Assembly (NCBI GenBank): GCA_041389985.1
Contig: JAWKQS010000014.1
Span: 14,553 to 78,552 of the forward strand
Direction of reading: 5' to 3'
Length of the DNA: 64,000 nucleotides
Origin: a bacterium
GTDB taxonomy: Bacteria; Myxococcota_A; Bradymonadia; UBA7976; UBA1532
Shown here: piece after piece, positions 6,801 to 50,564 of the stretch
Layout: every line of letters begins with the position of its first letter
Position numbering within the stretch: position 1 is the stretch's first letter
Position numbers and translations under genes: made by a program
Notes under the pieces: model-generated
Seen by the model: the letters and a program-made list of their open reading frames with translations, nothing else
The model's database searches: none
What the model was told of the DNA's origin: nothing

Positions 6801-7979
6801 CCAGCCGGCCCCCCCGGCCGACGAGCTGGCCGGCGGCAAGGTGGCGTTCGTCTCCGATCGCGGCGGCATCCCCGCCGTCTACATCTCGCAGAACGACGGC
6901 AACCCGCCCGTGGCCCTGCCCAGCATGGGCGCCCCCGCCCGCGATCCCGAGTGGTCCCCCGACGGCCGCTACGTGGCCTACGTGGCCTGGGAGACCGTCT
7001 CCGGCGCCGACCAGCTCATCGTCTGGGACACCGTCGGCACCAACCACCACCTCATCACGACGCCCTTCCCGGGCTACCGCTACCTGAGCCACCCGTCATG
7101 GGCCCCCGACGGCAGCGAGATCTTCATCGGCTACCACGACGACCCGCAGGAGAAGGCCATCGGTGCCGTCGCCTTCCCCAGCGCCACCACCCGCACCCTG
7201 TACGCCACGCCGCCCGGCGGCTTCTGGAGCCCCGACGCCCCGGTCTACGGCGGCGTCGACCCCACCGGCCGCGCGCATGTGCTCGTCTACGCCACCGGGG
7301 CCTGCGTCGAGAACGCCCTCTTCCGCATCCCCGTGGAGGGCGGCGCGCTGGATCGCGTCTGGGCCGACGGCTTCCCCAGCACCCGCGCCCTCTTCCCCTC
7401 CGCCACCCGGGACGGCCGGCGCATCCTCTTCACCAGCGAGGACTACCTGGTGGGCACCCCGGGCTTCGACGACTACGAGGTGGTGGAGGTCGGCGCCCTC
7501 GAGGGCGTGACCACCCGCCACACCAGCGACGCCGGGCCCCAGATCGCCGCCTACGCCATCGGCGGCGTCGGCGAGTGGGCCGCCGAGACCCGCGCGCCCG
7601 GCGGCCGCCGCGACATCATCCTGCAGCACAACGGCGTGCGGCAGGCCCTCGCCATCGCCGACCCCGGCAACGCCTACGACGACTACCACCCGAGCTGGTG
7701 GAAGGCCGATCCCAGCGTGCCCGTCCCCCCCCCCAACGCCCCCGCCATTTCCTGCCCCGCCACCGTCATGTGGCCGCCGCAGGTGGCCCCCTGCGGCCCC
7801 CGCACCCCGCCCCCGCCACCGCCACCAGCGTCTGCGGCGGCCCGGTGCAGATCGACGTCGACCCGCCCACCGTCTCGGGCGGCGGCTCCCACACCGTCAC
7901 CTACACCGCCACCGACCGCCTGGGCCACCAGGCGAGCTGCACGACGGTCGTCTCGTGGCAGTGCATCTCCAGCAACTGA
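3889..7979 (+). CDS. Subtilisin-like (S8) serine peptidase with N-terminal myxobacterial Cys-rich repeat, TolB/PD40-like beta-propeller repeats and C-terminal HYR-like domain; apparent frameshift near 7790-7815
   Basis: RBS GGAAGGAGG then ATG 3889. Lipoprotein signal LARWLCGLIALAGC. Motif CGNGALEAYEACDDGNTKGGDGCSATC. S8 His motif HGTHVIGIMAG and Ser motif GTSMASPAATGV. PD40-like DPEWSPDGRYVAY and SHPSWAPDGSEIF. C-terminus ...PTATSVCGG...TVTYTATDRLGHQASCTTVVSW continues in the ORF 5802..7979 frame after a poly-C tract. The frame-1 read-through to 8481 crosses non-coding 43-bp repeats. Confidence 0.7.
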
Positions 7980-8010
7980 TGGTGGCGTGAGCCGTACCGG
8001 CGCCCTCGAC

Positions 8011-8464
8011 GGCGTCCGGGGCACCCCCTGCCCACCTCGAACCGCCCTCGACCGCGTCCGGGGCACCCCCATGCCCACCTCGAACCGCCCTCGACCGCGT
8101 CCGGGGCACCCCCTGCCCACCTCGAACCGCCCTCGACCGCGTCCGGGGCACCCCCCTGCCCACCTCGAACCGCCCTCGACCGCGGCCGGGGCACCCCCCT
8201 GCCCACCTCGAACCGCCCTCGACCGCGTCCGGGGCCCTCCGATCCTGCCTCGGAGTCGCCCCGACCGGCCCCCGGGGCCCTCCGATCCTGCCTTCGAGTC
8301 GCCCCGACCGGCCCCCGGGGCCCTCCGATCCTGCCTTCGAGTCGCCCCGACCGGCCCCCGGGGCCGTCCGATCCTGCCTCCGAGTCGCCCCGACCGGCCC
8401 CCGGGGCCCTCCGATCCTGCCTTCGAGTCGCCCCGACCGGCCCCCGGGGCCCTCCCCGCCCCCC
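8011..8464. repeat. Two adjacent direct tandem-repeat arrays: unit A about 42-43 bp x5.6 (8011-8249) and unit B 43 bp x5 (8250-8464)
   Basis: Unit A is cgccctcgaccgcgtccggggcaccccctgcccacctcgaac. Unit B is cgatcctgcc(t/c)(t/c)(c/g)gagtcgccccgaccggcccccggggccctc. Copies are near-identical, head-to-tail with no spacers. The unit length is not a multiple of 3. Confidence 0.85.
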
Positions 8465-8534
8465 TCGAAGCGCCCGCTTGAATCCCGCCGCGCCCCGTGG
8501 CCCAATGCCGCAGGGCGATCGTCGGGAGCATCGG

Positions 8535-10751
8535 GTGTACTACTGCCGCCGCTGCGAGATGGGCCGCGCCCTGGCGGCCACCCCATGCCGCCACGGCCCG
8601 ACGCCCCTGGTCAGCCTGGCGGGCTTCACCGTCGGCAGCTTCATCGGCCAGGGCGCCCACGGCCGCGTCTTCGGCTGCACCGCCGACGGCCGTGAGTGGG
8701 CCGTCAAGATCATCGACCTGCGCACCGCCGTCAGCGGCGCCGACATCCGCCGCCTCGTCGACCGCGAGAAGGCCGCCCTCGTGCGCCTGCGCCACCGCCA
8801 CGTGATCGCCCTGCACCAGACCGGCGAGCACGACGAGCTGCTGTTCCTGGTGGTCGAGCGCCTGGAGGAGACGCTGCGCCAGCGCATGCAGCAGCCCATC
8901 GCCCTGCCCCGCGCCCTGGAGTACGCCGCCTGCCTGGCCGACGCCCTGGCCTACGTCCACGACGCCGGGTCGCTGCACCGGGACGTGAAGCCCGAGAACA
9001 TCGGCTTTCGCCGCGACGACTCCCTGGCCCTCTTCGACTTCGGCCTGGCCGCCGACCGCACCACCGGCCGCGCCGCCCACACCACCGGCGTCGTCGGCAC
9101 CTGGCCGTACGCGGCCCCCGAGCAGATCCTGACCCGGGAGAGCGACCAGGCGACGGACGTCTACAGCCTGGGCGCCGTGCTCTTCGAGCTCTTCACGGGC
9201 GGCTCCCACCGCCCCGTCCCGGATCAGCTGAACCCCGTCGCGTGGCTCGCCCAGCCCATCCCCGCCTGGCCGACCGAGCGGGCGCTGCCGGTCGGGATCA
9301 CCCCCCTCGCCGACCTCATCCACGCCTGCCTCGCCCGCGAACCCGGCACCCGCCCGGCCATGTGGCAGGTGCAGGACGCCCTGGGCGAGCTGGCCGACCG
9401 GGCCCACCTGGACTTCGCGCGCCTGGCCGGCGAGCACCAGCGGCTGACGCGGGAGGTGGAGGCCGCCCGCGCAGAAGCCGCTGATCTGACTGCGAAATCC
9501 AAGCAGGCCAGGACGACCGCCCAGCAGGCCGAGGCCCGACGCGCCACCGCCGAGGCCGAGGGCAAGCGCCTCGCCGAAGAGCTCGACCGCCTGCGCGCCG
9601 AGGCCGCCCGGGCCGAGGACGAGGCCCAGCGCGCCGCCGCCAGCCGCAGGCGAGACGCCCAGGAAGCCGAGACGCGGGCCGCGAAGGCCGAAGCCCGGCG
9701 CGAGGCCGCCGAGGCGAAGCGCGCGACCGCCGAGGCCAGCGTCACGGCGCTCCAGGCCGAGCGCGACCGGCTCACGAAGGAGCTGGAGCGCTTGCGGACC
9801 GGGGAGACGTCGTCGACGGAGCCATATCCGGAGGCGATGAAGCACGCCCGTGAGGCCCTCGGGACGAAGCGGGCGCAGGCCCCGCCGCCGACCGCCGGCC
9901 AGCTCATCGCACCAGCGACGGCGACCCGACCCGCGCTGCGGTGGGTTCCGTCCGGCACCTTCACCATGGGCAGTCCCCCCGACGAACCGGGCCGAGGCGA
10001 CGACGAGGTGAGGCACCCGGTGACGCTGTCCTCCCCGCTCCTGGTGATGGAGACGCCCATCACCCAGGGCCAGTGGGCAGCGCTGCTGGGCACGCGCCCC
10101 TCGTACTTCCGCCAGGGCGGCGACACCTGCCCGGTGGAGCGGGTGAGCTGGTACGAGGCGGTGGCGTTCGCGAACGCGCTGTCGGCGGCGGAGGGCCTGA
10201 CGCCAGCGTACCGGGTGGGGCCAGCGTCGGGCACGCTGGGCGGGGGGTTGGCAGCGGGCCAGCCATGGGCCGCCGGCGACTTCCAGTACGCTTCGGTAGA
10301 GCCGGTGCCGGGGGCGAGCGGCTACCGCCTGCCGACGGAGGCGGAGTGGGAGGGCTGGCCCGCGCAGGGACGCCGGGGGCCATCTACGCGGGAACGCTGG
10401 AGATTCTGGGCGAGCGCAACGCCTGCCCTGGACCCCATCGCCTGGTATGGGGGCAACAGCGCCAAGGCGACGCACCCGGTGGGGCAGAAGGCGGCCAACC
10501 CGTGGGGCCTGCACGACGTGCTCGGCAACGTCTACGAGTGGTGCTGGGACGGGTATGCCCCCTACCCGACGGGCATGCAGCAAGACCCACACGGCCCACC
10601 CACCGGCGTCCACCGGGTTGTCCGTGGCGGGTCGTGGATCACGAACGCGCGGTGGGTGCGGTCGGCGAACCGCAACCACTGCGGCCCGGTCAGGCGGTAC
10701 GCGGTCATCGGGTTCCGCCTCGTTCGCCCCCCCAGCTCGGTCGGACCTTGA
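8535..10751 (+). CDS. DGR target 1: Ser/Thr protein kinase, coiled-coil, FGE-sulfatase (C-type lectin fold) domain with VR at the C-terminus
   Basis: Hanks kinase motifs IGQGAHGRVF, HRDVKPEN, DFG and APE. Long Ala/Glu/Arg coiled coil. FGE-sulfatase signatures RLPTEAEWE, THPVGQKAANPWGLHDVLGNVYEWCWD and RVVRGGSW. Start chosen at GTG 8535 (GGGAG RBS 6 nt upstream; VYYCRRC zinc-ribbon N-terminus like the paralogs). Alternative in-frame starts are ATG 8505 and TTG 8478. Confidence 0.8.
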   Translation: MYYCRRCEMGRALAATPCRHGPTPLVSLAGFTVGSFIGQGAHGRVFGCTADGREWAVKIIDLRTAVSGADIRRLVDREKAALVRLRHRHVIALHQTGEHDELLFLVVERLEETLRQRMQQPIALPRALEYAACLADALAYVHDAGSLHRDVKPENIGFRRDDSLALFDFGLAADRTTGRAAHTTGVVGTWPYAAPEQILTRESDQATDVYSLGAVLFELFTGGSHRPVPDQLNPVAWLAQPIPAWPTERALPVGITPLADLIHACLAREPGTRPAMWQVQDALGELADRAHLDFARLAGEHQRLTREVEAARAEAADLTAKSKQARTTAQQAEARRATAEAEGKRLAEELDRLRAEAARAEDEAQRAAASRRRDAQEAETRAAKAEARREAAEAKRATAEASVTALQAERDRLTKELERLRTGETSSTEPYPEAMKHAREALGTKRAQAPPPTAGQLIAPATATRPALRWVPSGTFTMGSPPDEPGRGDDEVRHPVTLSSPLLVMETPITQGQWAALLGTRPSYFRQGGDTCPVERVSWYEAVAFANALSAAEGLTPAYRVGPASGTLGGGLAAGQPWAAGDFQYASVEPVPGASGYRLPTEAEWEGWPAQGRRGPSTRERWRFWASATPALDPIAWYGGNSAKATHPVGQKAANPWGLHDVLGNVYEWCWDGYAPYPTGMQQDPHGPPTGVHRVVRGGSWITNARWVRSANRNHCGPVRRYAVIGFRLVRPPSSVGP
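10603..10736 (+). repeat. DGR variable repeat VR1 (last about 45 codons of target 1)
   Basis: 134 nt identical to the TR except at 9 positions, all of which are adenines in the TR (A to T or G). Confidence 0.85.
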
Positions 10752-10815
10752 GTCTAGAGTCTAGAAAGTGTGTTGTGCGCGGCAGATCTGCCGTGGCGCG
10801 GCACTCCGCGGCAGA
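10752..10815 (+). promoter_or_regulatory. Conserved post-VR element (palindromes TCTAGAgTCTAGA and CGGCAGATCTGCCG); candidate cruciform/hairpin next to the IMH region
   Basis: Starts right after the target-1 stop. A near-identical copy (2 mismatches) follows the target-2 stop in the same relative orientation (13186-13250). Further GGCAGATCTGCC-type palindromes at 10831-10844, 10857-10876 (perfect 20-nt palindrome) and 10893-10904. Confidence 0.6.
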
Positions 10816-10933
10816 CGCCGGCACCTTCTTGGCAGGATCTTGCCGACTGGGTGCCGTCATCGGCAGATCTGCCGATGGCGGCAAGACCGCCAACGCCGAT
10901 CTGCCGCATTCGGCAATCGCTCAGGGGGTCCCC

Positions 10934-11467
10934 ATGGAGCTTGACCTGCGCCAGGCGGCGGCGCTCATCGGCCGGCGCGAGCGGACGCTGCGCGACCAGC
11001 TCGTCCGGGGCGCCATTCGGGGCCGGAAGGTGGGTGGTCGCTGGGTGGTGCGCGAGGAAGACCTGCCCATCGACGAGGCGCGGCGGCAGACGCTGCGGGG
11101 CCGCGCGGACGCAGTGCGCGCGAGCGTCGAGACGGCCATCGCACGGCGCCAGCCAGCCATGACCATCGAAGACGTCGAGGTCTTCCGCCTGGGGCGCGAA
11201 GCGCTCCACCGCCTCGACGCCGGGCACGGCGAGATCGCGAGCGCGATCCGGGAGGCCTTGCTGCACATGGGCGTCGCCCACCATGAGTACGACGCGGGCC
11301 GCAAGCAGGCCGAGTGGGGGCGAGCCCGGATTCAGCTCGCCCGCGCCGTGCTCCTGCGCCTGCTCCCCGCCGCCACCGACTCCACTGCCGAGGTCGCGGA
11401 CGCCCTGGAGCGCGACGTCATCCCCCGCCTGGGTGGCCTGCTCCGCCGCACGGCGGAACGCCCATGA
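10934..11467 (+). CDS. Excisionase-family helix-turn-helix DNA-binding protein (DGR-associated)
   Basis: ATG 10934 after AGGGGG. N-terminus LRQAAALIGRRERTLRDQLVRGAIRGRKVGGRWVVREEDL matches the excisionase/MerR-like HTH pattern (...GRRWRI.REDL). The stop overlaps the next start (ATGA at 11464-11467). Confidence 0.6.
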   Translation: MELDLRQAAALIGRRERTLRDQLVRGAIRGRKVGGRWVVREEDLPIDEARRQTLRGRADAVRASVETAIARRQPAMTIEDVEVFRLGREALHRLDAGHGEIASAIREALLHMGVAHHEYDAGRKQAEWGRARIQLARAVLLRLLPAATDSTAEVADALERDVIPRLGGLLRRTAERP

Positions 11468-11800
11468 AGCAGGCACCGCTGGCCGTGTTCGCCCACGATC
11501 TGGCGGTGTGGCTGCATGGGCAGGCACAGCGCGCCTCGGTCGCCCACCAGGCGACGGGGCTGCCGGCGGCCGCCGCGGCGCAGAGTCGGACGCTCCTCAT
11601 CCAGGTGAGTCTGGCGCTCACGTTCCGCGAGGGCCGAGGCGAACACCAGCGCGGGGCGGACGAGGCCCTCGCGAGCCTACGGGTCTTGCTGCGGCTGGGA
11701 GAGGCCATCGGCTGGCTCACCCCGGCGGGCCTGCTGCACGCCGCCGCCCTCATGGATCCGGCGGGCCGCATCCTGGGCGGCTGGCGCCGGGGGCACCAGC
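11464..11800 (+). CDS. avd: Avd-like accessory variability determinant (3' end uncertain; ORF formally runs to 11991)
   Basis: Helical protein of about 110 aa. Its C-terminal segment ...LRVLLRLGEAIGWLTPAGLLHAAALMDPAGRILGGWRRG resembles the Bordetella bAvd C-terminus (...VGRILGSWIARVNRKG) of the four-helix-bundle family. Translationally coupled to the HTH gene. The tail beyond about 11800 is low-complexity and overlaps the convergent RT gene. Confidence 0.5.
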
Positions 11801-12732
11801 AGTCCCAGGTGGGCGGCGAGGCTGCGCTCGACGTCGTTGGGGGCCCCTCCCAGGGCGCTGGTGACACGCTGCCCGAGCCGGCGCCAGGCCCGCGGCAGGG
11901 GCTGCGCGCCCGCCGTCGACACCGCGTGGCCCAGCCCATGGAGCACTTCGCCGCGGTGGATGACGGGCGCGTCGGGCCGCTTGAGCCGTAGGCCACGCTC
12001 GGCCTCCAGCCAGACTCCCAGGTCGGTCCGGATCCGCCGGAGTTGCCGACGATCGTCGGAAAACATAAACAGATCATCCACATAGCGTACGTAGCCAGGG
12101 ACGCGAAGGGTGCGCTTGACCCAGGCATCGAGGCCCGAAAGGTAGACGTGGGTGGCCAGAATCTGACTGGTCAGCGCGCCGATCGGCAGGCCTCGACCCG
12201 GTGGTGGCCAGTCGGCCGGCAGGCCCATGAAGGCCCGGACGTCGGTACGGCGGTACAGGGTCGTGCCCTGGTCGAGGATGCGGCCCACCAGCGCCAGCAC
12301 GGGCGGTTCGCGCACGAAGGCGGCGAGCAACGCATGCAGACGCTCCACCTGCACGCTCGGGAAGAAGGCGCGCACGTCCAGATGCAGGGCAAAGCGATGG
12401 CGGCGCTTCAGCCTGAGCAGCGCCAGCACGGCCCGGTGGGTCCCGAAGCCGGGACGACAGGCGTGGTTCTCGGGCATCAGCCGGCGCTCGATGGCGGGCC
12501 AGAGGGCCGTCATCAAGGCCGTGTGCACGACGCGGTCCTCGATGGGCGAGCGGGCGATGACGCGGGGCTTGGGATCCCGGATGAGGAGAGGCTCGCAGGG
12601 GGCGGGCTGCCAGGTCTCAGCAGCGAGGGCGGTCGCCAGCCGGAGGGCGACCTCCTCCCGGCGAAAGAAGAGCCAGGCGCCCTCAGGGCGGTGCCGCTTG
12701 CCACGCAGCGTCCGGTCGACCGCCGCCAGCAA
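11677..12732 (-). CDS. DGR reverse transcriptase
   Basis: RT motifs: N-terminus LLAAVDRTLRGKRHRPE...LLIRDPKPRVIARSPIEDRVVHTAL. FFPSV. DGR-specific motif 4 IGALTSQ (about 12163-12183). YVDD box GYVRYVDDLFMFSDD (about 12073-12084). C-terminal ...ERSLAAHLGL thumb-like segment. The start is uncertain (TTG 12732 proposed; no in-frame ATG; ORF frame open up to 13227 through the TR). Confidence 0.8.
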   Translation of the reverse strand: MLAAVDRTLRGKRHRPEGAWLFFRREEVALRLATALAAETWQPAPCEPLLIRDPKPRVIARSPIEDRVVHTALMTALWPAIERRLMPENHACRPGFGTHRAVLALLRLKRRHRFALHLDVRAFFPSVQVERLHALLAAFVREPPVLALVGRILDQGTTLYRRTDVRAFMGLPADWPPPGRGLPIGALTSQILATHVYLSGLDAWVKRTLRVPGYVRYVDDLFMFSDDRRQLRRIRTDLGVWLEAERGLRLKRPDAPVIHRGEVLHGLGHAVSTAGAQPLPRAWRRLGQRVTSALGGAPNDVERSLAAHLGLLVPPAPAAQDAARRIHEGGGVQQARRGEPADGLSQPQQDP

Positions 12733-12887
12733 TGCCGCAGGATCCGTGATGCGCGGGAAGAGGCCGCCGACGCTACGCAGAGGTGCACCCGCGGGCGTTC
12801 GACCGGACGTGCCGTCTACCAGGACGCGGGTGCGAGGTCGGCCGGGGCCGACGGCTGGACGCCTGCTCGGGGCCACGCAGGCCGCGG

Positions 12888-13021
12888 GCTGGGGGGGCGA
12901 ACGAGGCGGAACCCGATGTTCGCGTTCCGCCTGACCGGGTCGTTGTGGTTGCGGTTCGCCGACCGCACCCTCCGCGCGTTCGTGTTCCACGACCCGCCAC
13001 GGACAACCCGGTGGTCGCCGG
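12888..13021 (-). repeat. DGR template repeat (TR)
   Basis: 134 nt with 23 adenines, including 7 AAC codons in the VR reading frame (WNTNARRVRSANRNHNDPVRRNANIGF). Matches VR1 and VR2 except at adenines. Lies immediately 5' of the RT on the same strand. Confidence 0.85.
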
Positions 13022-13185
13022 ACGGCATCCACCCTGCCCGCATGATGAGGACGGCTGACCCGGCGGCGCAAGCCCCGCGGTGCCGGGTTCGGCAGCTCCG
13101 GGTGCCGCTGGCGGCAAGAAGTGATCTGAATCTGCCGCACACGGCACCGAAACGGCAGAAACCTGCCGCGGAGTGCCGAATCTTG

Positions 13186-13250
13186 CCGCGGAGTGCCGCG
13201 CCACGGCAGATCTGCCGCCCACAACACACTTTCTAGAATCTAGACTCAAG
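13186..13250 (-). promoter_or_regulatory. Second copy of the conserved post-VR palindromic element (downstream of VR2)
   Basis: The reverse complement matches 10752-10815 with 2 mismatches. An additional CGGCAG-AAAC-CTGCCG hairpin lies at 13153-13168. Confidence 0.6.
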
Positions 13251-15959
13251 GCTCGACCAGGCTGGGGGGGCGAACGAGGCGGAACCCGATGACCGCGAAC
13301 CGCCAGACCGGGTCGTTGAGGACCCGGTCCGCCGACCGCACCCTCCGCGCGTCCGTGTCCCACGACCCGCCACGGACAACCCGGTGGTCGCCGGTGGGTG
13401 GGCCCGATGGGTCCGGGTGGACGCCCGGCGGGTAGGGGGCGTACCAGTCCCAGCACCACTCGTAGACGTTGCCGAGGACGTCGCGCAGGCCCCACGGGTT
13501 GGCCGCCTTCTGCCCCACCGGGTGCGTCCCCGAGAACTTCGCCGGCCGCTGCATCTCCGGCCAGCCCGACGAATCGTAGCCCTTCTCCACCCCGCTGTTG
13601 CCCCCGTACCACACGATGGGGAGTCCAGGGGCTGGCGCGTTGTTCTTGCCCAGAATCTCCAGTGTTCCCGCGTAGATGGCCTCCCGACGTCCCCGCACGG
13701 GCCAGCCACCCCACTCCGCCTCCGTCGGCAGGCGATAGCCGCTCGCCCCCGGCACGGGCTCTACCGAAGCGTACCGGAAGTCGCCGTCGGCCCATGCCTT
13801 GTCCGCTGGCAGACCCCCTGCCGAGCGTGCCCGACGCCTGCCCTACCCGGTGGCTGCGTCAGCCCTCCGCCTTCGACAACGCGCTCGCGAACGCCACCGC
13901 CTCGTACCAGCGCTCACCTGCCCACTGGGCAGGGTGTCGCCACACGCCCCGAAGTACGAGGGCTTCGCCTCAGCACCGCAGACCACTGGCCCTGCGACCT
14001 CCGTCTCCATCACCCACAGCGCCTGAGTCACCGTCACCTCATGCGGCACTCCTCATCGTCGTCGCGGCCCGGCCTCGCCCGCGCGCCGGCATGGCAGTGG
14101 CCCTTCTTGCCGTCCGGGCTGCCCATGCAGAACTCCCAGCGGGGACGGCGGAGTGCGGGGCGCTGGGGGTGGCGCTGGCGACCAGGGCACCCGGTGCGGG
14201 AGTGGAAGCGGTGGGGCGTCAACTGCCTGGGATGGTGGTGCCGCGTCCACGGCCAATGGCGGCCGGGCCGCATCAACGGCGAGGGATGGTGGTGCCGCGT
14301 CCATGGCCACCGGCGGCCGGGCCGCATCAACGGCGAGGGATGGTGCTGCGTCCACGGGTTCGCGCTGCTCTTCGCCGCCGGCCGAGGCGCCCACGACGAG
14401 CCCAATGCCGATTCCACGAGCAGGGCGCCTCCGACGCTCGCGCCGAGCATGACCCGGCGGCGGCGGGCGTTATGGCTGCGCTGTGCTTCCAGGCGCTCGG
14501 CGTCGGCCAGGGCCTGCCTGGCCGACGCGAGACGCTGGGCCTCCGCGCTCGCCTCGGCGCGCGCGCTTCGCACGGCGTCGCGGGCGATCTCGCTGGTGGC
14601 GCGCAGAGCGGTCGCCTCCCGACCCGCCTCGCTGATGCGCTCCTGCAGGGTCTCCAGCTCCACCGCCAGGCGGGCGGTCGCGACCGCCCGCCGTGTCGCC
14701 AGGTCTCGCTCCAGGGCCTCCACGGCAGCGGCCCGCTCAGCAGCCAGGCGGTCCCTCTGGGCCCGCTCCTCCACCTTCGCATGCTTCAGCTGTCGGTCCG
14801 CCGACGCCCGCGCCTCCGCCAAGGCGGCCTCCGCGGCCGCACGCTGGCTGGCCAGCTCGCGGGCCAGAGCATCCGTGGCAGCGGCGCGCTCCTCCGCCAG
14901 CTTCTTCCGCTGCGCGGTCTGTTCGGTCCTGGCCTGCCGGGCGATGCGCTCGGCCGCGGCTCGCGCCTCGGCGACCGACGCCTGGGCCTCTGCGAGCGCC
15001 GCCTGCTCGGTAGCCAGCCCAATCTCGACCTGGACGAAGCGGGCGTGGGCCTCGCCCAGGCCGGTGCCCAGGCGGTCGGCCAGTTCCGCCACGACGTCCA
15101 GCACTGCCCAGGTGTCTCGCGGGCGAGCGCCTGCCTCGACCGCGAGGCACTGGAGGATGAGCCGGTCCAGCGCCGCAGGACGGGCGGGGTCGGGCGGGAG
15201 CGGTGGCACCGGCTGGCGGGCGTATGCCTCGTAACCCCCTGAAAACCCTTGGGGTCGGTGGCTCCTGCCGGCGATGAGCTCGTAGAGGATGGCCCCGAGG
15301 GCATAGCGGTCCGACCAGGGACCGTCGCGGCCAAAGACCTTCGGAACGAGCTGTTCCGGCGCAGCGTAGGGCCGACTGAACCCCTTGACGCCCACCGTGG
15401 TGGCGCTGTCGCCGCGGCGCACGCCGGCCAGGCCGAAGTCGAAGACGTAGAGGTGGTCGCGGTCGTCCAGGCCCAGGTTCTCGGGCTTCAGATCGCGGTG
15501 GATGACGCCGACGTCGTGCATGTAGGCCAGCGCGTCGGCGAGCTGGGCGGCCAGCTGAATGGCCCGAGGCAGGGTCAGCAGGCGTCCCGGAGCCGCTCGC
15601 AGGACGTCCTCAAGCGTGCGCGGGACATACTCGGTAATGAGGCAGAGCCGACCCGCGACCTCTTCGGCATGGATCAGGGCGATCACATGGGCATGGGCCA
15701 GCTGCGTCAACGTCGCGCGCTCGCGGCTGAACAGCTCGTGGGCGTCGTCAGGTCGATCGAAGCCGTTGGGGTCGATGACCTTGATCGCCCGGCGGAAGTC
15801 GCCCTGGAAGCACTTCGACACCCGGGAGGCGCGCGACTTCTGGATGGACGCCCCAGCCTTCCAGCTGTCATCCAGGCCCGGGATGAGCGCCGTCGGGTGG
15901 TGGCCCTCGGTGCACCGGTCGCCGTCGGTGGGGATGAGGCAGAGCGGGCAGAGGTACAT
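13246..15959 (-). CDS. DGR target 2: Ser/Thr protein kinase, coiled-coil, FGE-sulfatase (CLec) domain; reading frame interrupted at least 3 times (likely sequencing errors)
   Basis: ATG 15959 (MYLCPLC zinc-ribbon N-terminus). Kinase motifs HRDLKPEN, DFG and APE. Coiled coil. FGE domain split over ORFs 14034..16010, 13843..14049 and 13246..13755 (HEVTVTQALWVMETEV..., RLPTEAEWGGW..., THPVGQKAANPWGLRDVLGNVYEWCWD, RVVRGGSW), ending in VR2. Confidence 0.7.
13261..13394 (-). repeat. DGR variable repeat VR2 (3' end of target 2)
   Basis: 134 nt. It differs from the TR at 11 TR-adenine positions plus one C-to-G. Confidence 0.8.
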
Positions 15960-16149
15960 CAGCCGTCCCACCCCAGCTCGAGCTCCAGGCCGCCACCTTC
16001 CAGCAGGCACGGCCCGCGGGCGGTCTGGCCGCGGGGGAGGCGGCGGCCGTCGACGCGCAGGGTGCCGGCGGCGTCCTGGCGGCCGACGGTGAGGGCGTCG
16101 CCGGTGACGTCCACGAAGAAGTGGACGCGGGCCATGCGGTGGGTGGCGC

Positions 16150-16600
16150 CGAGCAGGGGGTGGAAGCCAGCGATCGGGTCGGCGGTGTGGCGGCGGCCGA
16201 AGTGATGGCGACCAGGGGGAGCGTCAGCGTGCCGAGCCAGGCAGGCTCGTCCTCGATGGGGCGGGCGGCGTGGGCCGAGCGCCAGCGGAGGGTGGCGGCG
16301 GTCGCGGCGCGCGGGGCGCTGGGACCGGCGGGGGGGTGCTCCAGCACGGCCAGCAGCTCATCCAGGAGCGGGATCGGCGGCGTGATGACGAGGAGCCGCG
16401 CGTTGCGCAGCCAGGCCGCGAGCGCGAAGACGTCGCTGTACAACTCGTTGAGATCGCTGATGATCTGGTCACCGGGCCGGTCCTTGACGGGCAGGGCGTT
16501 GATGCGGCGCTGGTCGAGGCCGACGAGCAGCATGCGACGACGCTGGGGCTCGCAGAGATCCGTCGCGACGACGGCCGTTTGCAACGCCTGGAGCTGCTCC
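16150..16600 (-). CDS. Hypothetical protein (boundaries uncertain)
   Basis: Protein-like segment KVITREQLQALQTAVVATDL...LLVITPPIPLLDELLAVLEHP within ORF 15868..16827. Candidate GTG start about 16600. The tail is low-complexity. Confidence 0.3.
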
Positions 16601-16743
16601 CTGGTGATCACCTTGCCCTCGTGCCCACCGGTCCCGAGCGAAGATCGCCCGATTGGCGTGCGGGGGCAAGGGGGCGGCGCTGCACTTCCTCGCCTGCCCA
16701 CGAAGGTTGCGGTAGGCTCACATTCCCCGGAGGAGCGCGCGCC

Positions 16744-17697
16744 TTGACCACATCCCCTGCCCTGCCCCGTGTGCCGACGTCCGCTGATGTGGCGGCGGCG
16801 GCGGCGCGCCTGGCGCCCTGGATCCACCGCACGCCGGTGATGCGGGTGAAGGGGCCGGGGGCGCGGCCGATGGTGGTGAAGCTGGAGGGGATGCAGCGGT
16901 CGGGCAGCTTCAAGATGCGGGGGGCCCTGAACAAGCTGATGCTACTCGGGCGCGAGGCGCGGCGCGGGGTGGTGACGGCGAGCGGCGGAAACCACGGGCT
17001 GGGTGTGACGTGGGCCGGGTGGCTGCTGGGCGTGCCGGTGCATGTGTTCCTGCCCGAGAACTGCTCGCCGTGGAAGCGGGCGGCCCTGGAGGGGGCGGCG
17101 GCGCGGGTGCGGGTGGCGGGGCAGGTCTACCCCGAGGCGGAGGCGGCGGCGATGGCCTTTGCCGAGGTGGAGGGGCTGCCGTTCATCCCGGCTTACGATG
17201 ATCCCGATGTGATCGCCGGCCAGGGCACGGCCATCGCCGAGCTGGTGGAGGACGCCCCGGATGTGGGGACGATCGTCATCGCGGTGGGGGGCGGCGGGCT
17301 GGCGTCGGGGGCGGTGCTGGCGGCGGCCGGGCGCAAGGTGGTGGGCGTCGAGCCGTACGGGGCGCCCACGATGCATGCGGCGCTGCGGGCCGGCAAGCCG
17401 GTGAGATTGAACGATATTCAGTCGGTGGCGGCTGACTCCCTGGGGGCCGGGAGGGCCGGCGAGCTGACGTTCGCCATCTGTCGGCGCGGGCTGGATCGGG
17501 TGGAGCTGGTGGAGGATGACGCCATCCGTGCAGCGCAGCGCTGGCTGTGGGAACATCTGCGGCTGGTGTATGAGCCGGGAGGCTCGGCGGGGCTGGCGGC
17601 CCTGGCGACGGGGGCGCTGGACGGCGATCCGGGGCCGGTGGGCATCTTGCTCTGCGGGGCGAACACCGATCCGGCGGCCCTGGGAGGGGTGCATTGA
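16744..17697 (+). CDS. Threonine/serine dehydratase-family PLP-dependent enzyme
   Basis: TTG start with GGAGGA RBS. PLP-lysine motif SGSFKMRGA, plus GGGGL and a Gly-rich loop. Confidence 0.75.
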   Translation: MTTSPALPRVPTSADVAAAAARLAPWIHRTPVMRVKGPGARPMVVKLEGMQRSGSFKMRGALNKLMLLGREARRGVVTASGGNHGLGVTWAGWLLGVPVHVFLPENCSPWKRAALEGAAARVRVAGQVYPEAEAAAMAFAEVEGLPFIPAYDDPDVIAGQGTAIAELVEDAPDVGTIVIAVGGGGLASGAVLAAAGRKVVGVEPYGAPTMHAALRAGKPVRLNDIQSVAADSLGAGRAGELTFAICRRGLDRVELVEDDAIRAAQRWLWEHLRLVYEPGGSAGLAALATGALDGDPGPVGILLCGANTDPAALGGVH

Positions 17698-23097: not shown

Positions 23098-26000
23098 TCA
23101 GCGGCGGATGATCAGGTTGTAGTGGACGACCGCCTCCAGCGGGGTGACGACCACGTAGTAGGTACCCGCGTTGAGGCCGAGGGTGGTGGACGGCCCCACG
23201 TCGAGGCTGCCGTCCACCTGGCGGAGGCGCTGCCCGAAGCCGTTGTAGAGCTCCAGGCGGACGCGCCCGAAGTGGGCGCCGTAGGTCACGGCGATGGTGG
23301 TCTCCCGGCGCTGGTCCAGCCGGAAGCTGTAGCGATCCACCGGGTCGAAGCCGGTGCAGACGTCGAGGTCGCGGTACTCCTGGTTGTCCAGGAACCGGAT
23401 CTGGCGCACATCCTCGTTGGGATCGAGGGCGTCCACGCAATCGAAGCAGCCCGGGGGGCCCCCGGCGTCGTTGCAGAACACGACCGGCTCCACCGTGAGG
23501 CTCGCGGAGTAGCCCAGCGGGGCGTCGAGCTGGCTGCCGTCCACCAGCGCGATCAGGATGGCCGGATCGAAGACCAGCAGCTCGACGCCGCCGTCCACCG
23601 ACCGCCCCACGGCGTCGCCGTCGAGGGTGAAGACGCCGACCTGGGCCAGGGCGTCGACCGCCGCGCCCAGCGTCGCGAAGCGCACCCAGGCGGGGCCATC
23701 GGTGCCGAACAGGTAGTAGTCCTGGGGATCGAAGTCCTGGCAGAGGGTCAGGCCCTCGGTGATCCCCGGATCGATGGGGGCGGCGTCGTCGGGGACGTCG
23801 TTGTCTTCCAGCGCGTCGTCGCAGGCCGAGAGCGCCCGGCAGGGGCCCCAGTCCGCCCACTGGCCGGCGTCGTCGCAGACGCGCTGCTGCTGGCCAGGCT
23901 GGCCGCCGGCGTTGCAGGCGCGCTCCTCCACCGCGCCGGGCTGGCACTCGATGGGCGAAGCCTGGACGGTCAGGGTGCTCTGGCCCGAAGAGAAGCGGAA
24001 GCCGTCCACGAACAGGTACCAGGTGCCCGCCGGCAGGATCTCCTCGATGCGCGACCAGTTGCCCTGGCCGCCGTCGTCGTCGCACGCGATCTCGGTGCCC
24101 TGATCGAGGCAGTCGGCGCGCAGGAAGAGCGCGGTGTCGTAGTCGGCCCGCGTGATCTCGAAGATCACGTGCACCGGGGCATCGTTGCTGAAGCGCAGCA
24201 CCTGCTCGCCGCCCGCCGCGTTGCCCGCGCAGCTCGCGAGGTGCCGGCTGACCCGGTTGCGGGTGTCGAAGCCGTAGGTGGCGCCGTTCTCCAGCACGTC
24301 GAGGTCGTAGGCCAGGTCCAGGCAGGGATCATCGGGCGAGACGCAGGCGCTCCAGTCGCCCCAGGCGCCCTGGAGGCAGGTGCGCACCTGCTGGCCGCGA
24401 TCCTGGTTGCAGCCGCGCTGCTCCTGGGCCCCGTCCACGCAGACGTCGGGATCGACGCAGCCACCGAAGCCGCCCCACTGGCCGGCGGCGCAGACGCGGG
24501 TGCGGGTGCCGCGCCCGTTGAGGCCGCAGGCCTCGTCCTCGCTGGCGCCGTCCACGCAGACGTCGGGATCCGCGCACATGCCGTAGGCGCCCCACTGCCC
24601 GTTCACGCAGGTCCGGGATCGCATCCCGCGGCCGTTCTGGCCGCAGGCCTGGGACTGATCGGCGCCATCGCGGCACACATCGGGATCGGCGCAGTCGCTC
24701 CACCGCTGCCAGAGGCCGCCCGCGCAGAGCCGCGCCTGGGTGCCGCGGTTGTTGAGGCCGCAGGCCCGGTTCTCCATCGCGCCGTCGCGGCACTCCCCCG
24801 CGCCGATGCAGGCGGACCAGTCGGCCCACTGCCCGGCGACGCACTCGCGCCGCTCCTCGCCGTTGCCATTGGGACCACAGACCCGGGTCTCTTCGCGGCC
24901 ATCCACGCACACATCGGGATCCTGGCAGGCCGAGAACGCGCCCCAGCGGCCATTGGCGCACTGGCGAGACTGGGCGCCCCGCCCGTTGAGGCCGCAGGCC
25001 TGCTCTTCCACCGCGCCATCCCGGCAGATGTCGGGATCCACGCACATGCCCCAGTCACCCCACCGGCCCGCCGCACAGAGGCGAGCCTGGGCCCCGCGGC
25101 CGTTGACGCCGCACGCCCGCGACTCCTCGGCCCCGTCCAGGCACTGGTCGGGATCCGCGCACATGCCCCAGTCGCTCCACTGGCCGCGCCGGCACTGGCG
25201 AGCCTGGGTACCGCGGGCGTTGAGGCCGCAGCCGCGGTTCTCGGTGCGGCCGTCCACGCAGACGTCGGGATCCACGCAGGCGCTCCAGGCGCCCCAGGCG
25301 CCCCCGGCGCAGACGCGCTCCTGGCTGCCCCGGCCGTTGAGGCCGCAGCCACGCTGCTGCCGATCCCCGTTGCCGCAGTCGGCGTTGACCACGCACTCGC
25401 CGAAGCCGCCCCACTGGCCATCCGCACACGTCCGCACCTGGGTGCCGTTGCCGCCGTCGCCGCAGGCGCGCTCTTCTTCAGCGCCGTCCACGCACACGTC
25501 GTCGTCCCGGCAGGCCCCGAAGTCGCCCCACTGGCCGGCCGCGCAGGTCCGCGTCCGCAGCCCGCGGCCGTTGAGCCCGCAGGCCTGGTCCTCGGTGCGA
25601 CCGTCGAGGCAGACGTCGGGATCGGCGCACGCCCCCCAGGCCCCGAACACCCCGTTCATGCAGGCGCGGCTCTGGGTGCCGCGGCCGTTGAGGCCGCAGG
25701 CCCGCGTCTCCGGCACGCCATCCTCACAGCGATCCGGATCCTGGCAGGCGCCATACTCACCCCACTGGCCCTGCTGGCAGGTGCGCGTCTCGACGCCCCC
25801 GCCGTTGAGGCCGCAGGCGCGCTGCTCCTCGGAGCCATCGGCGCACACATCGGGATCGGCACACGCCGACCAGGGGCCGAAGCGGTTGTCCACGCAAATA
25901 CGCCGCTGAGCGCCGCGGCCGTTGAGACCACAGGGGCGCTCCTCCTCGCGGCCGGGCAGGCAGTCCGCCACCTGCTCGCAGGCCCCGAACTCGCCCCACT

Positions 26001-26919
26001 GGCCGTTCACGCACGTGCGGCTGTGCTGGCCCAGGCCATCGGCCCCACAGGCCTCGACCTCCTCGGCCGTGTCGCGGCAGACGTCGACGTCGACGCACTC
26101 CCCCTCGGGCACCCACTGGCCGTCCCCGCAGCTCTCGCGCACCTCCCCGCGCCCGTTGAGGCCGCAGGGCACGGATCGCTCGCTGCCGTTGGTGCAGGCA
26201 TCGGGATCGACGCAGGCTTCCCAGGCCGCCCACGCGCCGTCGGCGCCGCAGGCACGCACCTGGCTGCCCCGCTCGTTGAAGCCGCAGGCGCGCTCCTCCG
26301 TGGCCCCGGGATCACAGGCACCCGGCGCCTGACAGTCGCCCCAGGCCCCCCAGTGGCCGCCCTCGCATGCGCGAGTCGCCTCGCCCCGATCGTCCGCGCC
26401 ACAGGCGCGCCGGTCGACGCGACCATCGACGCACTCGTCGGGATCGGCGCAGGCATCCCACATCGGCCAGTTGCCCTGGTTGTCGCAGGTCCGCCGCTCC
26501 ACCCCCCGGCCATTGAGGCCGCAGGCGCGCTCTTCCTCCTGGCCCGTGCTGCACTCCCCCAGGCGACACTCGCTCCAGGCGCTCCACTGCCCCTCGGCGC
26601 CGTGGCGGTGGCGGGCGCCCGCCATCGCAGCCCTCCGGGTCGGTCTCCTCGGCCCCGTCCGAGCAGATGTCGGGATCAGCGCACTCGCCGAACGCCGTCC
26701 ACATCCCCCCGGGGCAGGTGCGCAGCTCCTCGCCCCGTCCGTTGATGCCGCAGGGCCGGCGCTCCTCGTCGCCGGGCGTGCAGGCCCCGCCGACGGCCGC
26801 GTCGGGCGCCGCGTCGCCCGCGGCGTCGGGCTGCCCCTCTCCCGTGAGATCCGGGTTGTCATCGGTGCAGGCGGCCAGCCCGAGCAGCAGGCTGGCCAGG
26901 AGCAGCGCGCGTGTACGCA
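23098..26919 (-). CDS. Large secreted protein with about 21 tandem TSP1-like repeats and a C-terminal PPC-like domain; apparent frameshift near 26615-26635
   Basis: Signal peptide MRTRALLLASLLLGLAAC (ORF 26312..26950 frame). About 40-aa repeats ACGLNGRGxQxRxCxxGQWGxWGxCxDPDVCxDGxxE resemble the thrombospondin type-1 pattern W..W..C..CG.G.Q.R.C. C-terminal ...ACDDDGGQGNWSRIEEILPAGTWYLFVDGF. Confidence 0.65.
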   Translation of the reverse strand, partial: CVHARCSWPACCSGWPPAPMTTRISRERGSPTPRATRRPTRPSAGPARPATRSAGPAASTDGARSCAPAPGGCGRRSASALIPTSARTGPRRPTRRAAMAGARHRHGAEGQWSAWSECRLGECSTGQEEERACGLNGRGVERRTCDNQGNWPMWDACADPDECVDGRVDRRACGADDRGEATRACEGGHWGAWGDCQAPGACDPGATEERACGFNERGSQVRACGADGAWAAWEACVDPDACTNGSERSVPCGLNGRGEVRESCGDGQWVPEGECVDVDVCRDTAEEVEACGADGLGQHSRTCVNGQWGEFGACEQVADCLPGREEERPCGLNGRGAQRRICVDNRFGPWSACADPDVCADGSEEQRACGLNGGGVETRTCQQGQWGEYGACQDPDRCEDGVPETRACGLNGRGTQSRACMNGVFGAWGACADPDVCLDGRTEDQACGLNGRGLRTRTCAAGQWGDFGACRDDDVCVDGAEEERACGDGGNGTQVRTCADGQWGGFGECVVNADCGNGDRQQRGCGLNGRGSQERVCAGGAWGAWSACVDPDVCVDGRTENRGCGLNARGTQARQCRRGQWSDWGMCADPDQCLDGAEESRACGVNGRGAQARLCAAGRWGDWGMCVDPDICRDGAVEEQACGLNGRGAQSRQCANGRWGAFSACQDPDVCVDGREETRVCGPNGNGEERRECVAGQWADWSACIGAGECRDGAMENRACGLNNRGTQARLCAGGLWQRWSDCADPDVCRDGADQSQACGQNGRGMRSRTCVNGQWGAYGMCADPDVCVDGASEDEACGLNGRGTRTRVCAAGQWGGFGGCVDPDVCVDGAQEQRGCNQDRGQQVRTCLQGAWGDWSACVSPDDPCLDLAYDLDVLENGATYGFDTRNRVSRHLASCAGNAAGGEQVLRFSNDAPVHVIFEITRADYDTALFLRADCLDQGTEIACDDDGGQGNWSRIEEILPAGTWYLFVDGFRFSSGQSTLTVQASPIECQPGAVEERACNAGGQPGQQQRVCDDAGQWADWGPCRALSACDDALEDNDVPDDAAPIDPGITEGLTLCQDFDPQDYYLFGTDGPAWVRFATLGAAVDALAQVGVFTLDGDAVGRSVDGGVELLVFDPAILIALVDGSQLDAPLGYSASLTVEPVVFCNDAGGPPGCFDCVDALDPNEDVRQIRFLDNQEYRDLDVCTGFDPVDRYSFRLDQRRETTIAVTYGAHFGRVRLELYNGFGQRLRQVDGSLDVGPSTTLGLNAGTYYVVVTPLEAVVHYNLIIRR

Positions 26920-48300: not shown

Positions 48301-50510
48301 GCGCCGCCAACGAGCGGTGCGACCAGGGCGTGTGCCAGCCGGTGGTCTGCCGCGTCGATGCGGACTGCGACAACGAGTTCACCTGCGCGGCCGGTCGCTG
48401 CATCCCGCCGTTCTTCTGCCAGCGCCGCGCCGACTGCCCCTTCCCGGAGAACATCTGCGAGAACGGCGTGTGCGTGACGCCCAACGGCTGTCGCAACGAC
48501 GCGGACTGCGGCCCCGAGGAGAGCTGCGTGGCCGGGCAGTGCGTCTTCATCCCGCCCCCGGAGTGCCAGCGTGACGCCGACTGCCCCGCTCAGCAGGTCT
48601 GCGAGTTCGGCTTCTGCACCCTCCGCGCGTGCCAGAACGACGCCGAGTGCCCCATGGGCCAGGCCTGCCAGGGCGGTCAGTGCGTCGAGGCCCCCAACCT
48701 CTGCCGGCTCGACACCGACTGCGCCCGCGGCGAGCTCTGCCGCAACGGCCAGTGCGCCGTGGTCCCGGGGAGCTGCCGGGCCGACGCCGAGTGCCCCCTG
48801 GGCCAGAGCTGCTCCCAGCAGTTCTGCCTGCCCTTCTGCCGCGACGACAGCCGCTGCCCCGCGGGCCAGGCCTGCGGCGCCGACCGCCAGTGCGCCCCCA
48901 TCGAGAACCCCTGCCGCGTCAACGAGGACTGCCCCGCGGGCGAGTTCTGCGCCGCCGGTGGCCAGTGCCAGGTGGGCTGCCGGGCGGCCGACGAGTGCCT
49001 CCCCGGCCTCGCCTGCGTCGCGGGGCGGTGCGTGGACCAGGCCGGGTGCCGCAGCGCCGACGACTGCCAGGCGGGCCAGCAGTGCGTCAACCGCGTCTGC
49101 GTCGGCCAGCCCCTGGAGTGCCGCGTCGACGCCGACTGCGGCGGCGGGCGGCGGTGCCAGGACGGCGTCTGCGTCCTCGACGGCTGCCAGGATGACGCCG
49201 ACTGCCCGGCCGGCCTGAGCTGCGTCAACGGGGCCTGCCAGCAGGCCCCCGTCTGCGCCGGCGACGCCGACTTCCCCACCCTGATCTTCAACGGGGCCGG
49301 GGTGCAGCGGCTCGTCGTCGACACCACCGGCGCGCGCAACGCCTACACCGCGACCTGCGGCGGCAACGCCGGCGGCCTCGATCAGGTGGTCCGAATCGAC
49401 CTGCGCGTGGCCGCCCAGGTCGACATCGAGGTCACCCAGGCCACCTACGACACCGTGCTGCACCTGCGGCGGATTTGCGACGACGCCGACACCCAGGTCG
49501 CCTGCGACGACGACGGCGGCCAGGGCACCCGGTCCCGCCTGACCCTCCAGGTGCTCCAGGCCGGCGGCTACTTCCTCTTCGTGGACGGCTTCGGCAACGA
49601 CCGGGTCGGCGGGCCCACCACGGTCGAGATCCGCGTCGCCGACCTGGCCGCGTGCCAGGTGGACGCCGACTGCCCCAACGCCGGCCGCTGCGTCGGCGGG
49701 GCCTGCGTCCCCGGCGGCTGCCAGGCCGACAACCAGTGCGCCGCCGGCGAGATCTGCCTCGGCGGCGAGTGCCAGGCGGGGCGCCGCTGCCGCGTCGACG
49801 CCGGGTGTCTCAACGGTGACATCTGCGTCGGCGGCCTCTGCCGCGAGCCCCAGTGCACCCTCGACACCGACTGCGCCCGCGGCCTGATCTGCGAGGCCCG
49901 CCAGTGCCGCGCCCCGCAGTGCGCCCGGGACAACGACTGCGCCGCCGGGAGCGTCTGCGTCGAAGGCCGCTGCGAGATCGCCCAGTGCATGGTGGATCTG
50001 GACTGCCCCGGCGCGACCATCTGCGAGGACGGCCGGTGCACCGATCCGCTCTGCCTGCGCGACGACCAGTGCGCCGCCAACGAGCGCTGCCGGGCCGGCC
50101 GCTGCGAGCTGCGCGCTGACTTCTGCGGCCAGGACGCCGACTGCGCCGCCGGCCAGATCTGCGAGGGGGAGGCCTGCCAGGGCACCAACGGCCGCTGCGC
50201 CGACATCGACGCCTGCGGCGCCGCCGACTACTGCATCAACGGCAACTGCACGGCCCCCGTCCAGTGCCAGAACAACCAGCAGTGTCGCCGCATCGTGCCG
50301 ATCTTCACCTGCCAGCAGGGCATCTGCCGCCCGCCGGTCAACCAGTGCCGCCGCAACAGCGAGTGCGCCGTCGGCGGCAGCTGCGTGTTCGGCATCTGCG
50401 CCCCCCTCCAGAGCCCCGAGTGCGTGCGCGACGTGGACTGCGGCGACGGCCGCCTCTGCGAAGGCGAGCGCTGCGTCGCCCCCGGATCTGCCGGGGGCTC
50501 CGCACCGATT
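45302..50510 (+). CDS. Giant Cys-rich secreted lipoprotein (about 1700 aa) with about 60 tandem 25-30-aa repeats CxxDxDCPxGxxCxxGxC and an internal PPC-like domain; at least 2 frameshifts near 45420 and 45770; 3' end not resolved
   Basis: N-terminus MRLLRCLPGVLLVLLAGCG. The repeat array runs through ORFs 45302..45535, 45229..45780 and 45663..50828. The ECF-sigma terminator at about 50510-50558 bounds the 3' end. Confidence 0.55.
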
Positions 50511-50558
50511 CCAGAGAGAAAACGAGGAGTTCCCGGCGCCGCAGGGGCGCGGCGCCGG
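50511..50558 (-). terminator. Putative intrinsic terminator for the minus-strand ECF sigma gene
   Basis: Perfect 10-bp GC stem ccggcgccgc / gcggcgccgg (50533-50542 and 50549-50558) with a 6-nt loop, followed on the minus strand by ttttctctct after 12 nt. It sits between convergent genes. Confidence 0.4.
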
Positions 50559-50564
50559 CGCGGC

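Follow-up and report, generated by a model that had tools for sequence, protein, structure and literature searches.

Cellular diversity-generating retroelements (DGRs) that diversify sensors made of a kinase or NTPase joined to a lectin domain have already been described as a class, and their products have been proposed to act as bacterial 'antigen sensors' (Dore et al., 2024, PMC10907252; related proposals in PMC7159879 and PMC7517822), no experimental model of which was reported in these papers. The accessory genes catalogued for DGRs comprise avd, HRDC, MSL, and CH1 (Wu et al., 2018, PMC5758913), and a helix-turn-helix (HTH) gene has been mentioned at one locus type only (Dore et al., 2024, PMC10907252). 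Here we describe a locus that joins this class, found in a 64,000-nucleotide (nt) stretch of DNA (hereafter, the window), which covers positions 14,553-78,552 (forward strand) of contig JAWKQS010000014.1 in the metagenome-assembled genome (MAG) GCA_041389985.1, whose G+C content is 74%. A preceding inspection of the letters alone (the sequence-only reading) had recognized there a DGR with one template repeat (TR) and two variable repeats (VR1 and VR2).

As listed in Table 1, the repeats adjoin a reverse transcriptase (RT) gene, an avd-like gene, and lectin-type target genes. Because the TR/VR statistics and the codon placement of the variable sites coincide at one place with these genes, the locus was identified as a DGR, and we hold with considerable confidence that it is a genuine, recently active chromosomal element diversifying a kinase-linked lectin sensor. 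As such it will not surprise a specialist; the part deserving follow-up is the accessory module, namely an HTH_17 gene and phased motif arrays, for which no description as DGR components was found in the literature searched. Neither this third accessory gene with its arrays, nor the convergent layout of the cassette, nor the decay of the VR2-bearing gene, nor a garbled patch of 22 codons in the VR1-bearing gene had been mentioned in the sequence-only reading.

Table 1. Features of the DGR locus; positions are those of the window.
Feature	Position	Strand	Description
Target gene 1	8478..10751	plus	Zn-ribbon-like N-terminus, Ser/Thr kinase, coiled coil, C-type-lectin/FGE domain with C-terminal VR1
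VR1	10603..10736	plus	9 differences from TR, all at TR adenines
Flank after VR1	10752..10933		AT-rich TCTAGA patch, palindrome CGGCAGATCTGCCG, 12 CGGCA/TGCCG motifs, 10-nt phasing
HTH_17 accessory gene	10934..11467	plus	177 aa; NCBI MEZ4472096.1, hypothetical
avd-like gene	11464..11991	plus	ATG overlaps HTH stop (ATGA); conserved core ends near 11793
RT gene	11677..12876	minus	NCBI MEZ4472097.1, 399 aa from GTG 12876; conserved core ends near 11780
TR-RT spacer	12785..12887	minus	motifs CCCCGAGCAG (12872-12863) and CCTGGTAG (12823-12816); 9-bp stem
TR	12888..13021	minus	non-coding, directly upstream of RT; 23 adenines, 7 AAC codons in target frame
Flank after VR2	13022..13245		same AT-rich patch, palindrome (13204-13217), 14 CGGCA/TGCCG motifs; between target 2 stop and TR
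VR2	13261..13394	minus	12 differences from TR, 11 at adenines
Target gene 2, apparent pseudogene	13246..16010	minus	kinase, coiled coil, remnant transmembrane segment, lectin domain

Repeats, retroelement genes, and the diversified target

The three 134-nt stretches were aligned with MAFFT over 134 columns without a gap, which confirmed to the base the positions previously assigned to them and reproduced the earlier counts of 9 differences from TR in VR1 and 12 in VR2. All nine mismatches of VR1 fell on TR adenines (6 A>T and 3 A>G; P = 2.8e-8, hypergeometric given 23 A in the 134-nt TR), as did 11 of the 12 in VR2 (5 A>G and 6 A>T; P = 3.6e-9), whose single non-adenine change was a C>G at TR position 71, flanked by two mutated adenines. 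When both VRs were pooled, 20 of 21 mismatches were on TR adenines, and A>C was never seen. The tabulation by TR base, which the sequence-only reading had named as its own check, accordingly sustained the concentration at adenines (P ~1e-8 per VR) together with the description of the changes as A to T or G with one C-to-G.

In the target reading frame, the TR adenines occupy codon position 1 (12 adenines) or 2 (11 adenines) and never position 3, and the seven AAC codons claimed earlier were recovered. The resulting 16 variable codons allow ~2.5e13 possible protein variants, with a stop codon unreachable from any of them. The AAC sites do vary in the VRs as had been asserted, the amino acids then listed for them being only approximate. 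The VRs constitute the last 44 codons of two paralogous genes in inverted orientation, and an inverted repeat of 359 nt (10466-10824 / 13173-13531; 89% identity) spans the VR regions and flanks of both targets. The homology of TR, VR1, and VR2 ends abruptly at ...TTCGCCCCCCCAGC, a GC-rich boundary lying 12 nt ahead of each target TGA, also in agreement with the earlier description. The terminal 31-mer of the repeat was present in three exact copies in the window, against 0 expected; no fourth copy of the repeat was found within the 64 kb, and an N-at-adenine pattern searched against the metagenome contig and genome contig collections for further VR copies or variants matched nothing.

The GC-rich 3' boundary consists of the same 31 nt in TR and VRs, with divergence starting right after it, and a predicted CGGCA-GATC-TGCCG hairpin follows both VRs and does not follow TR. 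Every feature of a DGR that is testable from sequence was observed, save a difference between the initiation of mutagenic homing (IMH) site and its TR counterpart IMH* inside the repeat, which is lacking because the 31-nt ends are identical. The assignment as a DGR made in the sequence-only reading gained further support from the RT, the Avd-like protein, the lectin targets with a C-terminal VR, and this VR-specific hairpin.

The RT matched Pfam RVT_1 (1.4e-11), carries the motifs LPIGALTSQ (IGxxxSQ) and YVDD, and aligns over its full length with eight homologues of ~330 aa. By sequence, its best solved relative was the Bordetella DGR reverse transcriptase bRT (8ub7_A, 1.1e-25), a group II RT scoring 8.6e-9; the designation as DGR-type is made from these motifs and sequence matches rather than from a phylogeny. 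TR ends 11 nt ahead of the annotated RT start. Within the spacer between them, 12833-12825 pairs with 12793-12785, five of the nine pairs showing two-sided compensatory changes (RNAalifold, 5 loci), and the spacer motifs, among which CTGGTAG is listed beside CCCCGAGCAG, are kept in the window and in the related loci L002, L014, and L015, and partly in L006. This conservation and covariation are consistent with a functional DGR RNA. No Rfam family was matched in the region 7500-16500.

The avd-like product was matched by Pfam bAvd (1.8e-5) and NCBIfam DivGenRetAVD (4.2e-6), and is 64.5% identical to the product of the L002 gene carrying PF22296, a domain borne by the avd orthologues in L002 and two other contigs. 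A C-terminal ...GRxLGGW motif is conserved in the protein and its orthologues, and its open reading frame (ORF) continues ~65 codons past the conserved core on the strand opposite to the RT gene. The cassette is convergent, with HTH-avd on the plus strand against TR-RT on the minus strand.

The search for RT homologues returned 421 proteins at E ≤ 1e-5, and RT-peptide patterns found no relative in the genome contig collection. In L002, the RT is 66% identical to that of the window, the TR is homologous, and the layout follows the same convergent plan (target, TR, and RT on one side, facing avd, HTH, and a second target on the other), whereas the order in L006 is colinear (target-HTH-avd-TR-RT). 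The three gene-terminal VRs of L002 showed adenine-only mismatches, and two internal lectin repeats there lack the boundary and carry non-adenine changes. One L002 gene (3707-6352) encodes an 881-aa protein with three tandem lectin domains; of these, the last alone combines the DGR boundary and the hairpin with adenine-only mismatches. The targets of the relatives are kinase-, TIR-kinase-, or TIR-NACHT-lectin fusions, the TIR-kinase and TIR-NACHT forms being those of L002, L014, and L015.

Target gene 1 encodes a kinase domain (Pfam Pkinase, 3.7e-38, residues 51-298) in which the motifs GQGAHG, VKI, HRD, DFG, and APE are all present, followed by an FGE-sulfatase domain (6.9e-39, residues 489-750). 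Among solved structures, the best relative for the lectin part was the DGR variable protein TvpA of Treponema (2y3c, 3.6e-42, residues 36-282 of the 290-aa query), and hydropathy predicted no transmembrane segment in the protein. Most likely, target 1 acts as a hypervariable sensor signalling by phosphorylation, as has been proposed for its relatives. The sensor role draws weak support from two observations, namely the similarity of the kinase to the defence kinases mad6 and PD-T4-6 (5e-50, scores of this size being generic for Ser/Thr kinases) and a neighbouring EAD5-like ORF (15868-16827, minus strand; 6.7e-6, 26.4 bits vs the Pfam cut-off of 27), which overlaps the start of target 2 and adjoins that pseudogene, not the live target 1. 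In bacterial conflict systems, EADs serve as adaptor domains.

Evidence of recent rewriting was obtained from a sister MAG assembly, GCA_041390005.1 (L001), which is 99.1% identical to the window over 18.7 kb. No difference was found between the two assemblies in the kinase/coiled-coil part of target 1 (~1.4 kb), while VR1 differed by 12 substitutions, all 12 of which lie on TR adenines (P = 3.2e-11). VR2 showed eight substitutions, none on TR adenines, and its adenine-site pattern was kept. Because all 12 VR1 substitutions fall on TR adenines in otherwise near-identical assemblies, VR1 appears to have been rewritten recently: to judge from this distribution, which random assembly noise cannot produce, either the rewriting postdates the split of the populations sampled or these are heterogeneous, and either would constitute DGR activity.

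By extension of the Bordetella phage paradigm (PMC5758913), TR and the structured spacer would be transcribed together with the RT gene, and an RT-Avd complex would copy the TR RNA into cDNA with misincorporation opposite adenines only. The cDNA would then supplant the matching 134-nt stretch at a target gene's 3' end, VR1 being the presumed live recipient. Such a recipient would be marked by the GC-rich 3' boundary together with the downstream hairpin absent from TR, its identity being conferred by the sequence past the common boundary, hairpin included. The predicted output is a cytoplasmic kinase with a hypervariable lectin face, the variation affecting 16 codons of the putative ligand-binding face.

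The HTH_17 gene and the phased motif arrays

The product of the accessory gene matched Pfam HTH_17 (4.2e-5), and its AlphaFold2 (AF2) model (pLDDT 79) begins with a winged helix at the N-terminus, continues in a long helix, and ends in a C-terminal domain of four helices. The N-terminal 45 residues superposed on BldC, Xis, and RdfS with a Foldseek probability of 0.97-0.99 and a root-mean-square deviation of 1.1-1.6 Å; these proteins bind cooperatively to direct repeats arranged in phased arrays. The family comprised 363 cluster representatives at E ≤ 1e-3 among 1.8 billion proteins, and its gene was linked to a DGR in 9 of 9 related loci with enough flank (L001, L002/L003, L004, L005, L006, L008, L012, and L014 and L015, in which the gene is truncated or fused), mostly between the lectin target and avd.

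We also considered that the HTH protein might be a paralogue in which an HTH is fused to Avd. BLASTP gave no match, Pfam Avd matched none of the 99 HTH_17 family members, and comparison of the 99-member family with the Avd alignment gave an hhalign probability of 0.6% for the C-terminal domain; with only weak fold matches left, this idea was dropped. Separately, L015 encodes a 153-aa protein (7265-7726) in which the HTH_17 N-terminus is fused directly to the C-terminal half of Avd, and L014 has a truncated HTH gene with a 60-aa C-terminal Avd fragment; in both cases a naturally occurring fusion or deletion connects the accessory genes.

The two flanks hold 12 motifs (in 182 nt) and 14 motifs, respectively, compared with a window mean of 1.1 (standard deviation 1.3) per 200 nt, and they ranked as the top 200-nt intervals of the 64-kb window. 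Spacings between motifs on the same strand peaked at 10, 20, and 30 nt. The palindrome CGGCAGATCTGCCG, found at 10780-10793 and again at 10861-10874, is the first element of the array and is predicted to form a hairpin of 5 bp with a 4-nt loop. It stands 67-68 nt from the VR anchor in 7 of 7 anchor-matched flanks of gene-terminal VRs (two in the window, one in L001, three in L002, and one in L005), and neither TRs nor internal repeats are followed by it. Arrays following VR-bearing genes recur in L002, L005, L006, L012, L014, and L015, even where the HTH gene lies elsewhere, and in the more distant L008 and L013 the array motif is changed (TTGAC and TGGCC, respectively).

Directly after the target stops there is also an AT-rich TCTAGA/TAGA patch (10752-10775 and 13222-13245), conspicuous in a genome of 74% G+C and likewise present in L002, L004, L005, L013, and L015. 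Its possible roles include that of a site for unwinding or nicking, or of a substitute for a terminator.

Because the HTH N-terminus matches BldC, Xis, and RdfS and the arrays show 10-nt phasing, we propose that the HTH_17 protein may bind the phased CGGCA arrays, and thereby either flag targets for homing or regulate how the cassette is expressed; on the structural and sequence comparisons above, we give this proposal about an even chance. A bolder version, in which the HTH_17-helical-bundle protein and the arrays would form a third, so far undescribed component of a widespread lineage of cellular DGRs, one that marks or licenses sites of cDNA integration and does more than repress, is speculative and, in our estimate, rather unlikely. 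If true, such target marking would account for the ability of a single TR to supply several scattered targets without being overwritten itself, although its 3' boundary is identical to theirs. Of the steps in the DGR mechanism, the one by which the cDNA locates its DNA target and replaces it is, to our knowledge, understood least; a sequence-specific factor on the target side, if real, would make this step testable.

A plainer account, in which the HTH_17 protein would be an ordinary repressor and the CGGCA arrays its operators, controlling the cassette or the target genes without any role in homing, falls somewhat short of an even chance. Palindromic GGCA-N4-6-TGCC sites are typical of dimeric operators, both arrays of the window sit where the promoters of HTH-avd and TR-RT are expected, and the array of L006 lies upstream of the HTH gene. 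The arrays of L012, L013, and L014, however, follow VR-bearing genes away from the HTH gene start; the regions upstream of the HTH genes of L012 and L014 have no arrays; and the first palindrome, which is missing after TRs, keeps a constant spacing to the end of the VR. Array placement and palindrome spacing are also compatible with regulation of the target genes, or with termination after them.

Target decay and the evidence for recent activity

Target gene 2 retains matches to Pkinase (1.8e-29; 14034-16010) and FGE (2.1e-23; 13246-13755). Frameshift-aware alignment to the orthologue revealed seven frameshifts and one stop in its lectin part (13681-14050), the linker being out of frame too. 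All seven lesions are common to the window and L001, which adds four of its own. The explanation of these frameshifts as assembly noise was rejected: all seven recur in an independent, differently noisy assembly whose own errors lie elsewhere. Because of this recurrence, the sequence comparison identifies target 2 as a real pseudogene, systematic basecalling errors common to both assemblies being a small residual option. Target 2 is a decayed, formerly membrane-spanning paralogue in which VR2 is frozen. Its degraded linker contains a 54-nt tandem repeat (14229-14349; 2.2 copies, 94% match) between the transmembrane remnant and the lectin domain.

In target gene 1, two frameshifts (10354 and 10421) cancel each other and leave the ORF as a whole intact. 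The lesion at 10421 is also found in L001, and that at 10354 is not; the out-of-frame patch may be either a real lesion or an assembly error. Three side observations concern the same gene. The frame entered at 10421 is open on the plus strand from 9941 to 11467; it crosses VR1 and the intergenic array without a stop and merges with the HTH reading frame, probably as a by-product of the high G+C content. A cluster of 23 substitutions relative to L001 (9882-10127) lies in the N-terminal half of the lectin domain, where the L001 version is unlike target 2; recombination with a third paralogue, or noise in L001, could account for it. Finally, a 43-nt tandem unit in ~11 copies (8001-8475; 90-96% match) ends 2 nt ahead of the gene start, each unit bearing a GGGGCACCCC mini-palindrome, and L001 aligns there in several registers.

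Several observations weigh against the overall interpretation offered here. The position of the ATG in the RT homologues is occupied by CTG (12780-12778), the only canonical in-frame start being GTG 12876; the ORFs of RT and avd, each running past its conserved end, overlap by 315 nt; and both Avd scores fall below the curated cut-offs. The fold matches of the accessory C-terminal domain were weak (2gsc, 2rld, 8ubb_D, and 4dwl; Foldseek E 0.085-1.1), with no similarity to the Avd profile, and consensus scans for sigma-70 promoters and intrinsic terminators found none. The two frameshifts of target 1 garble ~22 codons of the conserved lectin core (EWE-YLARAG...GERN). L001 is noisy, with 66 gap openings and local garbage in the RT and TR, and the evidence for activity is a comparison between assemblies rather than of reads revealing heterogeneity within a population.

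Since L001 is noisy, the VR1 comparison rests on its adenine specificity and not on the quality of that assembly; where the RT differs between the two, the window follows the family consensus and L001 does not. The TR copy of L001 shows A>G or A>T at seven adenines relative to the window TR, plus indels. Taking these changes as real was rejected, as such a TR cannot template the VR1 of L001 itself at TR positions 42, 73, and 79. They are probably an assembly artefact; the less favored alternative is that TR, whose 3' boundary is that of the VRs, was itself a recipient of homing.

It is improbable, in view of the VR1 comparison, that the locus is a fossil which once diversified both targets and is now inactive, its VR differences being historical. 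The lesions of target 2 in both assemblies, the non-adenine change in VR2 and its adenine-site pattern identical in both, the out-of-frame patch in target 1, the CTG in place of the canonical RT start, and the absence of stops at the usual place in RT and avd would all suit such a relic. The 12 of 12 adenine-site substitutions in VR1 beside an identical 1.4 kb, however, require homing after the populations split, and the element is intact in all catalytic motifs of its RT, in the adenines of TR, and in the structure of the spacer. The concern raised in the sequence-only reading, that both VRs might be invariant as in a fossil, was answered in part: VR1 varies between the assemblies, and VR2 keeps its adenine-site pattern. 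A still less credible account, that the three copies are paralogous repeats homogenized by gene conversion with an adenine bias arising by chance, accords with the inverted paralogous targets and their 359-nt arm at 89% identity, but is refuted by the mismatch statistics (20 of 21 mismatches on 23 of 134 positions), their confinement to codon positions 1 and 2, and the VR1 comparison with L001, the adenine-bearing copy being, moreover, non-coding and adjacent to a DGR-type RT, and its probability is negligible.

Elsewhere in the window, a 1721-aa Cys-rich ORF (45663-50828, plus strand) matches TIGR04201 Myxo_Cys_RPT with 69-nt-type repeats, and a second array encoding a giant Cys-rich protein occupies 24387-26460 on the minus strand with 117-nt repeats. 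Giant Cys-rich repeat proteins are typical of myxobacterial surface proteins. Together with the G+C content of 74%, the Myxo_Cys_RPT match hints at a host in the Myxococcota, probably a myxobacterium.

Comparison with known systems

The locus is one more clear case, in a probable myxobacterium, of a kinase-coupled lectin sensor under targeted hypermutation, a class proposed between 2020 and 2024 as bacterial 'antigen sensors', and offers a natural contrast inside one cassette, VR1 having changed between sister populations while VR2 is frozen in a pseudogene.

With the DGR of Bordetella phage BPP-1 (mtd-avd-TR-brt; PMC5758913), the locus shares the adenine-only differences between TR and VR, the AAC-rich TR codons, an RT with IGxxxSQ and YxDD motifs, an Avd-type partner, a target of C-type-lectin fold that ends in the VR, and, as putative recipient marks, a GC-rich 3' boundary and an inverted repeat that follows the VR alone. 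It differs in being cellular and not phage-borne, in having a kinase-fusion target in place of a tail fibre and two inverted targets, in the convergence of HTH-avd on TR-RT, and in the extra HTH_17 gene and motif arrays. In addition, the ends of TR and VR are identical over 31 nt in the window, and the hairpin starts ~45 nt past the boundary.

The clade 5 DGRs of conflict systems (PMC10907252; Kaur et al., 2020, PMC7159879) resemble the locus in their C-terminal CLec/FGE domain fused to a signalling domain (a kinase in the window), in several targets per cassette, in an EAD5-like neighbour (just under the Pfam cut-off in the window), and in a host genome with myxobacterial features, a likeness of target architecture that does not place the window RT on their tree. 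Their MoxR/vWA ternary partners have no counterpart here, as no MoxR or vWA gene adjoins the cassette, and the papers cited describe neither the HTH_17 accessory gene nor the arrays. The kinase-lectin architecture is likewise that of cyanobacterial DGRs with kinase targets (Vallota-Eastman et al., 2020, PMC7517822; class b12 of Wu et al., 2018). The variable domain itself finds its best solved relative in TvpA of Treponema denticola (2y3c), which is a surface lipoprotein, whereas the domain in the window is fused to a predicted cytoplasmic kinase without a transmembrane segment.

As for the accessory protein, its N-terminal winged helix superposes on those of BldC, Xis, and RdfS, and the 10-nt-phased arrays would fit the binding mode of these proteins, from which it differs in an added helical domain of 130 residues and in its strict association with DGRs.

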